Virus record (IMG/VR): IMGVR_UViG_3300050821_001198
Coordinates: 64,249 to 128,248 of that record
Source: a virus
Strand: one strand, 5' to 3'
DNA: 64,000 nt
Shown piece after piece: positions 62,614 through 64,000 of this stretch (position 1 is the first letter of the stretch; each line of letters opens with the position of its first letter). A program made the position numbers and the translations under genes. The notes beneath the pieces are model-generated. The model saw nothing but the letters and a program-made list of their open reading frames with translations, was not told where the DNA came from and ran no database searches.

Positions 62614-63165
62614 CTACCAGAGCCAACCTTCATCATCTTCGACACCGAAACCGGGTAGATGTGACCAACGTTGCCCGTTAGCAATCTTTCCGACCAGACG
62701 CCGACTCACCCCATAAATACTTGCAATTTCCTTCTGGGTGAGCGCCTTTTGAATAGCAAGAAGCTTGATCTGTTGTGCTAGTTCTGGAACGAGCTTGGCT
62801 GCCCCGTTACGCTCTCCACGATTAGCTAGGCCAATCTTAGCCTTATGGGTTTCGGTCTGGTGGTACCCGTGAGCACCCTCGCCCCCATCCTGGATATTAG
62901 TTAGACGGACACCGCGTTCCCGAAGAGTTGAAATCCAGTGACGCTCGCGTTCGGCCCAAGTGTCGTCGTCGGTTACCTCAAGTAGTTCAATTAGAGGGCG
63001 GACCCCAGAATCCCGAAGACCACGAATCCAGTTAGCAGAGTGGTACGTAGATCGATCACAATTCCCGACATGCTCATGGAGTCTCTCGAATAGATCCCGA
63101 TGGGTCTTACCAACATACCGAATCTCTCGGGTCGCGGGATCGCTAAGAGTATATATGTTTACCAT
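62614..63165 (-). mobile_element. free-standing GIY-YIG homing endonuclease (NUMOD3 + HTH)
   Basis: IYTL...RYVGKT, R...H, AERERHWI, LTN..DGGEG; HKAKIG; GERNGAAKL...QKEIASIYGVS; AT-richer than the flanks. Confidence 0.9.
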
Positions 63166-64000
63166 AGCCAGCCCTCATCTTCCTCTACTCCAAAGTCCGG
63201 AGAATAGTGAGTGCCCTTGAGGGCTAGGCGATCAAGATTCCGGGCGGTACCCGGTTCACGAATGAGCGTGTCCTGCTCGTTCGGAGTGAAGTTCGCACCG
63301 GCAGTGCGGGCGTTCTCTGGAATGGCGTCCTCGAAGATATGCTCAAGGTGAGAGTGGGTGAGCTTGTACTCTGCCTCCTGAGCCGCATTGAACTCTGCAT
63401 ACTCCGAATTGGTGGAGGCTAGGTTGCGGTAGTCAGATGAGTCGGAGAGATCGTCCTGATATCCGGGATCAGCCTGACCGGCATAATCGGCGTTCTGCTC
63501 AAGACCAGCGTTGGCGATCTCAGAGTCGCCCGGGTCTGTCGGAACAAACTCAAGCTGATCCATGTCAGCTTCCTGCCGTGGAATCTCAATGGACTTGCCC
63601 AGACCAAGTGTGCCAGTCTGTGTGTACTCGATGGCATGTGGCTTGACAGAGGTAATCTCAGCACGCTCAGGGACGGAATACTTGGGTGACTTGATTAGGT
63701 AGGTGGTCCCGACCTGAAGGTCATTGCCCTGATTGTCCTTCCAGCCATGAGACGAGTCCTGTTCCTGCTCGATGTTGTGTTGCGGGTGTTGGTCGGCGTC
63801 CGGGATGGCTACAGGGTTAGCCTGTGCGCCCGTGTCAAGTGTGTCACCCTCTGTTGGTCCGATACCCGCCCCGATTAGCGTCCACCGAGAGCTTGCCCCG
63901 TGGCTCATATCAGTGCTCGCGCCGTCATGGGGTGAGACAGAAGTCTTCCACTCGTGGCCGCACGACTTGCATTCGGCCGATCCGTCCTCGGGGTTGATAA
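63159..64000 (-). CDS. head-region protein, 5' truncated by the window
   Basis: Frame stays open past ATG 63908 to the window edge (INPEDGSAECKSCGHEW...); ends RTAG...ARNLDRLALKGTHY...EGWLW. Confidence 0.75.
   Translation of the reverse strand, partial: INPEDGSAECKSCGHEWKTSVSPHDGASTDMSHGASSRWTLIGAGIGPTEGDTLDTGAQANPVAIPDADQHPQHNIEQEQDSSHGWKDNQGNDLQVGTTYLIKSPKYSVPERAEITSVKPHAIEYTQTGTLGLGKSIEIPRQEADMDQLEFVPTDPGDSEIANAGLEQNADYAGQADPGYQDDLSDSSDYRNLASTNSEYAEFNAAQEAEYKLTHSHLEHIFEDAIPENARTAGANFTPNEQDTLIREPGTARNLDRLALKGTHYSPDFGVEEDEGWLW

Follow-up and report, generated by a model that had tools for sequence, protein, structure and literature searches.

A probable mobile GIY-YIG nuclease cassette with a duplicated gene end in the head module of a soil myophage

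The window analyzed here is a stretch of 64,000 nucleotides that forms the last 64 kb (positions 64,249 to 128,248) of the 128,248-base virus record IMGVR_UViG_3300050821_001198, for which CheckV estimated a completeness of 80%. Close to its end, a GIY-YIG endonuclease gene directly follows a large gene of the head module and terminates with 13 codons that repeat, in a different spelling, the end of that gene. This arrangement is probably a mobile homing-endonuclease cassette, similar to the "mobile open reading frame (ORF) with C-terminal duplication" known from fungal mitochondria, that resides here in a soil myophage. The inserted cassette has a length of 545 bases (62656..63200; all genes of the window described here are on the minus strand) and consists of a replacement tail for the large gene followed by the nuclease body. 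A related locus, termed L003, has an empty allele that lacks this cassette.

The large ORF (63159..63998) terminates with PDFGVEEDEGWLW followed by TAA (63200..63159); 279 of its codons are present, and its 5' end is lost because the contig end at 64000 cuts the gene. The GIY-YIG ORF (62614..63165; 183 codons) terminates with PGFGVEDDEGWLW followed by TAG (62655..62614). A first-pass annotation of this DNA had pointed to the similarity of these two ends, and its coordinates and ORFs, as well as its count of 11 identical residues out of 13, were confirmed. At the DNA level, 30 of the 42 bases are identical, and the longest exact run that the two tails have in common, as read off the sequences, is 5 bases. 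Among the nine identical residues that have degenerate codons, a single one is encoded by the same codon in both tails. The upstream tail, copy A (63159..63200; 13 codons and TAA), completes the large gene, and the downstream tail, copy B (62614..62655; 13 codons and TAG), is read in frame as residues 171-183 of the nuclease. The nuclease body that precedes copy B (62656..63165; residues 1-170) comprises the GIY-YIG domain, a helical linker, and a helix-turn-helix-like module ending with ..RWSHL.

Copy A also carries the translation signals of the nuclease. The first-pass annotation had noted that its CTA-TGG creates the endonuclease start codon, and this holds: the ATG (63165..63163) combines the A of CTA with the first two bases of TGG, and the 7 bases ATGGTAA belong to both ORFs. 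The TAA of copy A supplies codons 2-3 of the MVN.. start of the nuclease, the homologs of which start with MVNIY and MVRIY. A Shine-Dalgarno-like GAGGG (63172..63176) in copy A, with its GAGG 7 bases before the ATG, presumably functions as the ribosome-binding site of the nuclease; the same position reads GAAGG in the downstream copy. The ~11 bases located 3' of the stop codon of each tail are also alike (63148-63158 and 62603-62613), consisting of CATATA, an optional T, and then ACT. The upstream instance encodes nuclease residues 3-6, which are common to the homologs, and both chance and a longer duplication are possible explanations of this similarity.

The resemblance of the two tails is not due to chance, because among the 1,314 stop-to-stop ORFs of at least 50 amino acids in the 128,248-base record, these are the only two that end with an acidic run and an aromatic-hydrophobic-aromatic tip. 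The arrangement is not an assembly artifact either, since both junctions are bridged by identical contigs from public soil runs (X1, records 2 and 5; X2, records 11 and 12; X3, record 16), of which X1 may be the window's own sample. Contigs from two metatranscriptome libraries, which belong to different studies, cover positions 62596-63164 and thus the nuclease and the junction with the displaced tail, although they may represent DNA carry-over.

Neither megablast with region 61400..64000 nor tblastn with the large protein against 50,697 phage records revealed a close cultured relative, and two scans of viral contigs, one that used only the large protein as query and one that used the downstream protein, gave no relative. 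A scan of viral contigs with a five-sequence alignment returned only a distant locus (L002), a scan of metagenome contigs with alignment A2 returned nothing, and a scan of metagenome contigs with a degenerate DNA pattern retrieved L003. The proteins encoded in the window and in L003 share 97% (major capsid protein), 95% (193-amino-acid protein), 83% (Pro/Gly-rich protein), 82% (protease fusion), and 78% (large protein) identity. L003 is the empty site: its large gene (970 amino acids) ends with PDFGVEEDETWLW, and the homolog of the downstream gene begins 38 bases after the stop codon, with no nuclease in between. The blastn alignments with L003 form two blocks (window 63997..63157 and 62650..61320), and homology is broken across the cassette.

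The comparison with L003 identifies the native tail. Copy B and the L003 tail have 35 of 42 bases and 6 of 8 comparable codons in common, whereas these numbers are 29 of 42 bases and only 1 of 10 comparable codons for copy A. In the local alignment of the downstream side with L003, the first aligned codon is precisely the Pro codon at 62655, and the alignment continues through the native spacer (62581..62613) and the next gene, which is Pro/Gly rich (61471..62580). Copy B is the displaced native tail and copy A the inserted replacement, which corresponds to the insertion model of the first-pass annotation, according to which an allele free of the nuclease should match the downstream copy. The Pro/Gly-rich gene is the normal next neighbor of the large gene in relatives, being found in this position, by eye, in 12 of the 27 loci in which a relative of the large protein is encoded. 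A second copy of the tail was not found in any of these 27 loci, nor was a homolog of the nuclease. No nuclease domain was detected in 10 neighboring ORFs that were scanned from 9 of the 27 loci; the remaining neighbors were judged by eye to be homologs of the downstream gene or near-duplicates of the scanned ORFs.

To appreciate the difference in codons between the tails, the general divergence of the module has to be considered. At identical residues, the fraction of identical codons between the window and L003 was 0.49 in the body of the large gene and 0.60 to 0.76 in four neighboring genes. Windows of 10 codons that contained at most one identical codon, as is the case for copy A, accounted for 9 of 190 in the large gene and for 0 of 1,494 in the other four genes. 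Under independent codon draws, the single identical codon out of 10 between copy A and L003 has a P value of 0.010. For the comparison of the two copies with each other, independent draws from the codon usage of the phage predicted 3.9 identical codons out of 9, and the probability of observing at most one was 0.035. This value rose to 0.13 when the three codons tied to the ribosome-binding site and start of the nuclease were set aside. The statement in the first-pass annotation that nearly every wobble base differs is thus correct as a description, with one of nine codons being the same, but the difference exceeds chance only modestly. We also considered a co-conversion tract in the large gene; the lower fraction of identical codons in this gene fits fast evolution equally well, and the 5' part of the gene is missing, so that this candidate was dismissed.

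The base composition does not separate the two copies. The GC content at third codon positions (GC3) was 0.54 for copy A and 0.46 for copy B at an equal overall GC content (0.564), and codon-usage likelihoods failed to distinguish them. The proposals that the upstream copy has AT-rich, endonuclease-like codons and that the downstream copy has phage-like codons were therefore not borne out. Furthermore, 13 codons are too few for a tree that would provide the phylogenetic origin of the inserted C terminus. The compositionally foreign part is the nuclease body, which has a GC3 of 0.465 and lies below all 41 reference genes, the lowest of which has a value of 0.576.

A number of points weigh against the interpretation as a mobile cassette. 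At the DNA level, all evidence for an empty allele comes from one relative, L003. The codon statistics, with P values of 0.010 to 0.035, are weak, because the duplicated stretch comprises only 13 codons. The base identity of copy A with L003 (69%) is close to that of the whole large gene (71%), and ordinary divergence of a fast-evolving gene could account for part of the difference between copy A and L003. At the protein level, copy A is nearer to the relatives than copy B, with 12 and 10 of the 13 residues, respectively, identical to those of protein P0001. The lower protein match of copy B can be read as drift after displacement, but a copy A that is the older of the two would look alike. 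A nuclease-free variant of the same phage was not found in four runs, the contigs of which hide rare variants and provide thin and patchy cover. Lastly, the mobility of the element is not shown by its distribution, since the best homolog of the nuclease is only 42% identical.

By sequence and modeled fold, the nuclease is an intact member of the I-TevI-like GIY-YIG enzymes. Residues 4-83 match Pfam family PF01541 with an E value of 1e-6 (29.3 bits compared to a cutoff of 22.6, and 30.6 bits in the genome search). All 17 columns that are invariant among 32 homologs, window protein included, are maintained, such as Y5, Y17, V18, G19, R28, H32, E74, and N90; Y5, Y17, G19, R28, H32, E74, and N90 are residues that we take to be the counterparts of the catalytic residues of I-TevI. 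The structure model has predicted local distance difference test (pLDDT) values of 96-98 over residues 1-90, and the best fold match in the Protein Data Bank (PDB) was the catalytic domain of I-TevI (1LN0 and 1MK0), with target TM-scores of 0.71-0.72, a probability of 1.00, 22-23% identity, and a Foldseek E value of 4e-3. The C-terminal part is less well defined. It gave 18.8 bits with HTH_3, which is under the cutoff of 23, and a PDB sequence search with the nuclease resulted in weak matches to XRE-type regulators (E = 0.04-1). Helices were modeled at residues 127-151 and 155-162 (pLDDT 59-76), and the last 13 residues were modeled as coil, with pLDDT values of 52 and 43 in the last two blocks.

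This gene is the only GIY-YIG gene in the record. Its closest homolog among 5.8 billion proteins has the 42% identity mentioned above, and the best matches to phage proteins were below 60% identity, with those listed ranging from 27 to 44%. The homologs end 0-3 residues past a W-x-H motif, which corresponds to RWSHL in the window, and none of 31 homologs has the acidic-aromatic tip; the last 13 residues of the nuclease therefore derive from the host gene. The closest homolog, P0006, ends with ..RWSHLPDF, and the same P-D-F opens the tail of the host gene. This may reflect either the same insertion site with a truncated displaced tail or native residues that gave rise to microhomology.

We then inspected 80 virus loci that contain homologs of the window nuclease for a recurrence of this layout. 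The upstream ORF abuts the nuclease start in 33 of the 80 loci, and in two of these 33 (L089 and L090) the tail of the upstream ORF is repeated past the nuclease. In L089 (1929-3136), a neck/tail-completion gene (phrog_222) ends with ..INSLDKK and the nuclease with ..IRSLDKK, so that 7 residues are repeated in frame. The two copies use completely different codons for Ser and Leu, and the ATG of the next ORF follows directly after the stop codon (TAAATG). In L090 (885-3608), a helicase gene (phrog_62) has a 68-codon duplicate in which 155 of 204 bases and 33 of 52 codons are identical. The displaced copy begins at the stop codon of the nuclease itself and is out of the nuclease's frame; an ATG located 28 bases before this stop could allow separate translation of the displaced piece. 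In all three cassettes (window, L089, and L090) the nuclease start overlaps the upstream stop. Since the fusion is in frame in L089 and out of frame in L090, at genes that are unrelated, the layout belongs to elements of this type rather than to the 13-residue peptide, and fusion is optional.

These data are consistent with the following scenario. The cassette is located directly before the original last 13 codons of the large gene, and the large protein keeps its tip, for which the cassette now provides the codons. The native codons of the tip are shifted downstream, and the nuclease ORF, lacking an earlier stop codon, reads on to the original TAG of the gene and thereby gains 13 residues. 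In a mixed infection, the enzyme may cut the uninterrupted allele of a coinfecting relative near the end of the gene, and repair would then copy the cassette, using the body of the large gene as left homology arm and copy B, the spacer, and the next gene as putative right homology arm, a role to which the near-native spelling of copy B is suited. The re-spelled copy A would remove the site of the enzyme from its own genome. As no common run exceeds 5 bases, the two copies presumably cannot recombine to delete the nuclease, and a broken end would be kept from pairing with copy A, so that the repair crossovers flank the nuclease gene. Copy A would also supply the ribosome-binding site and start codon, coupling the translation of the nuclease to the late head operon. 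The 13-residue extension of the nuclease most likely arose as a side effect of this geometry that is tolerated. According to this scenario, the enzyme should cut the empty allele but neither of the two resident junctions, and it should not need the extension.

The host gene of the cassette belongs to a sizeable protein family with 271 cluster representatives at an E value of up to 0.001. Its members have 700-1600 residues and are rich in zinc ribbons and low-complexity sequence. Three close relatives of the large protein (77, 72, and 60% identity; full length, 908-970 amino acids) end with ..GVEEDE[TG]WLW or a near variant. The family shares a C-terminal module (RTAG..FTP.EQ..LI.E.G.ARN.DKL.L.GTHY), after which 11-33 residues follow that end with an acidic run and a hydrophobic/aromatic tip (FLFGL, FLW, or WLW). 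The THY is present within the last 60 residues in 151 of 152 family members and the acidic plus hydrophobic/aromatic tip at the end in 122 of 152. The invariant module residues (G234 to Y265) are all located upstream of the duplicated residues 267-279, and the peptide of copy A equals the family consensus. Loss of the tip through an insertion would probably impair the large protein. Pfam, PHROGs, and a protein atlas returned only zinc ribbons, unnamed families, and matches under 0.8 for this protein, which has no known function in these sources; the designation as a head protein in the first-pass annotation is a positional label only. A family with such a strikingly conserved C-terminal module merits study in its own right.

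The arrangement can be explained in other ways, one of which is that a local duplication came first: a tandem copy of the gene end would have drifted, and a nuclease would later have landed between the copies, without any tail carried by the element. The similar base identities with L003 of copy A and of the rest of the large gene, given above, would fit this sequence of events. However, none of the 27 related loci has a second tail, and the ribosome-binding site, the start, and codons 2-3 of the nuclease are built into copy A. The 1 in 10 codons that copy A shares with L003 is below the background of 0.49 of this gene, and the three-part layout recurs at other genes (L089 and L090) and in mitochondria, which makes a preceding duplication very unlikely. 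As GIY-YIG nucleases are often intron encoded, the nuclease might also be part of a group I intron or an intein, with the duplicated tail being an illusion of annotation. The probability of this is close to nil: an Rfam scan of 61000..64000 gave no match at E values of up to 1, the upstream ORF already possesses a complete consensus tail and a stop codon, so that nothing requires splicing, and the nuclease is read in another frame from a separate start codon.

Two other explanations concern the reason why the displaced tail is read in frame. Read-through might have been selected for the sake of the operon, since termination at the original stop codon in its original context would preserve the translation of the next gene and the protection of the mRNA. 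The L089 nuclease, which ends at the stop of the displaced tail immediately before the next ATG, would conform to this idea. The start/stop overlap in all three cassettes indicates that these elements lie within operons whose translation is coupled, and a scan of 62300..63500 revealed neither promoter-like nor terminator-like sites. In the window, however, the next gene starts 33-36 bases past the TAG, and coupling is not obvious; the displaced tail of L090 is out of the nuclease's frame; and the contigs from RNA libraries that cover this region cannot show translation and may be derived from DNA. We thus consider selection on the operon unlikely. The second explanation, which extends a proposal of the first-pass annotation, is that the tip is a self-sufficient docking motif for head assembly that was kept in frame as a capsid-loading signal, so that the nuclease would be carried into proheads or virions and delivered with the DNA. 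If true, this would be a virion-borne homing endonuclease able to cut a competitor genome at the onset of infection. In phage HK97, the C-terminal region of the protease is responsible for capsid targeting. The conservation of the tip in the large-protein family is compatible with a short linear motif, the protease fusion of the same module also ends with acidic and aromatic residues, which hints at a shared docking theme, and the peptides of copies A and B differ only where close relatives vary (D, E, or K at position 2 and acidic swaps at positions 6-7). Nonetheless, there is no positive evidence for a tag on the nuclease, and several findings render it highly improbable. Of the module region, the nuclease has just the variable spacer and the tip, with the invariant residues lying upstream, and the cultured relative Finch has the module without an acidic tip (gp16 ends with GTHYLS). 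The same geometry occurs with the unrelated 7-residue tail of a neck protein in L089 and, out of frame, with the 68-codon helicase tail in L090. For a single case, an in-frame probability of one in three is explanation enough; the other two frames would close as well, after 6 and 25 codons. In addition, the tail is modeled as low-confidence coil, the large protein is not known as a head component, and the nuclease has no homolog closer than 42% for a comparison of conservation. A prediction with the major capsid protein and the last 60 residues of the large protein gave a score of 0.00 ("no answer"), which is evidence neither way. The mobile cassette with a cassette-borne replacement tail thus remains the preferred interpretation.

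With regard to the phage that harbors the cassette, the gene order downstream of the Pro/Gly-rich gene is a 302-codon gene, a gene for a 1005-codon protein with a prohead-protease domain, a 193-codon gene, and the gene for the major capsid protein (phrog_2522, E = 2e-90), and the tail sheath and baseplate genes are located beyond the latter. The major capsid protein is 51-53% identical to those of the Rhodococcus phages Finch and E3 and of Mycobacterium myophages, and, judged by this similarity, the source is therefore a soil myophage that is a distant relative of actinobacteriophages. In Finch, the positional counterpart of the large protein is gp16, which is encoded between the portal gene and the protease-fusion gene.

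Evolutionary rates are strongly unequal inside this one module (window 55495-63998 compared to L003). The 302-codon gene (phrog_19005; window 60349-61320) has no blastn match in L003, where a 249-codon ORF is found (L003:5049-5853), and the genes that flank it align with L003 at 77-84%; it appears to be a replaced or hypervariable gene. Within the Pro/Gly-rich gene, one X3 contig has 184 other bases in place of 187 bases (window 61980-62168); its match is short and contains 6 different bases, and the contig may stem from a related phage. The ends of the protease-scaffold fusions (..GEDDAATFM in window 57316-60333, ..GEDDFQAFM in L003:2286-5027, ..EEVPEFLFGA in L010, and ..KGTLFGF in L016) resemble, with their acidic-aromatic residues, the tip of the large protein in the same phages, which is ..DDDFFLFGL in L010. 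The [RK]TAG motif of the large-protein module is also present near the end of the protease fusion (IKTAGL), and it is conceivable that a cut by the prohead protease releases a C-terminal targeting peptide.

A full-text literature search, whose coverage leaves out subscription journals and supplements, returned no phage paper on a replacement gene end carried by a nuclease. In PMC10448857, duplication, fusion, and in-frame changes concern events within nuclease genes. The cassette appears to be a clear GIY-YIG representative of an element type that is already known, in a class of hosts for which there is apparently no printed description. The case is unusually clean in that it combines a 545-base cassette, a 13-codon duplication, an available empty allele, and nuclease signals written into the replacement tail. 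For annotation, such a cassette makes the nuclease look "fused" to a piece of its neighbor and the last codons of the neighbor foreign, which can mislead domain calls and gene trees. For phage evolution, it would point to a recombination hot spot with a defined position at the edge of the head module.

Among phage nucleases, the window protein can be compared to the Seg proteins of T-even phages, such as SegB (PMC2330249), and to intronless homing. Like them, it is encoded by a free-standing GIY-YIG gene in a lytic phage that is sporadic among relatives and located beside an essential-looking gene, and its spread is expected to occur by cleavage and co-conversion of the flanks. This comparison is at the level of the shared domain only. 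The seg genes sit between genes and are not known to possess a replacement copy of the neighbor's end. With I-TevI of T4 (1LN0 and 1MK0), the window nuclease has in common the fold of the catalytic domain and apparently also a layout of two domains, the C-terminal DNA-binding module being putative in the window protein. In contrast to I-TevI, it is located outside any intron, and its C-terminal module is, on the basis of subthreshold scores, of the XRE kind of helix-turn-helix.

The closest counterparts are the mobile ORFs (mORFs) with C-terminal duplication of fungal mitochondria, referred to as "gene hybrids," which are described for atp6 of Allomyces macrogynus and for atp6, atp9, cox2, and nad3 of Glomus sp. 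(PMC3630166). In these mitochondria, the native C terminus is 91-98% identical to those of relatives, whereas the inserted one is 64-81% identical, and the GIY-YIG ORF of Glomus atp9 directly abuts the native C terminus (Table 2 in PMC3630166). In Endoconidiophora, C-terminal duplications of atp6 and cob are reported beside GIY-YIG or LAGLIDADG ORFs (PMC6279837). As in the described mORFs, the window contains a free-standing endonuclease ORF in the 3' end of a host gene, an in-phase replacement of the C-terminal segment, and a displaced native C terminus downstream that is nearer to the allele of relatives than the inserted one. In contrast to them, the host is a tailed phage, the duplicated segment has only 13 codons, the nuclease start overlaps the host stop with the ribosome-binding site lying inside the replacement tail, and the displaced tail forms the C terminus of the nuclease. 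Moreover, the mobility of the Allomyces element was demonstrated biochemically, according to PMC3630166, whereas that of the window element is putative. Taken together, these similarities suggest that the mitochondrial strategy also operates in tailed phages, where a selfish nuclease would live in the end of an indispensable gene by virtue of its own re-spelled replacement.

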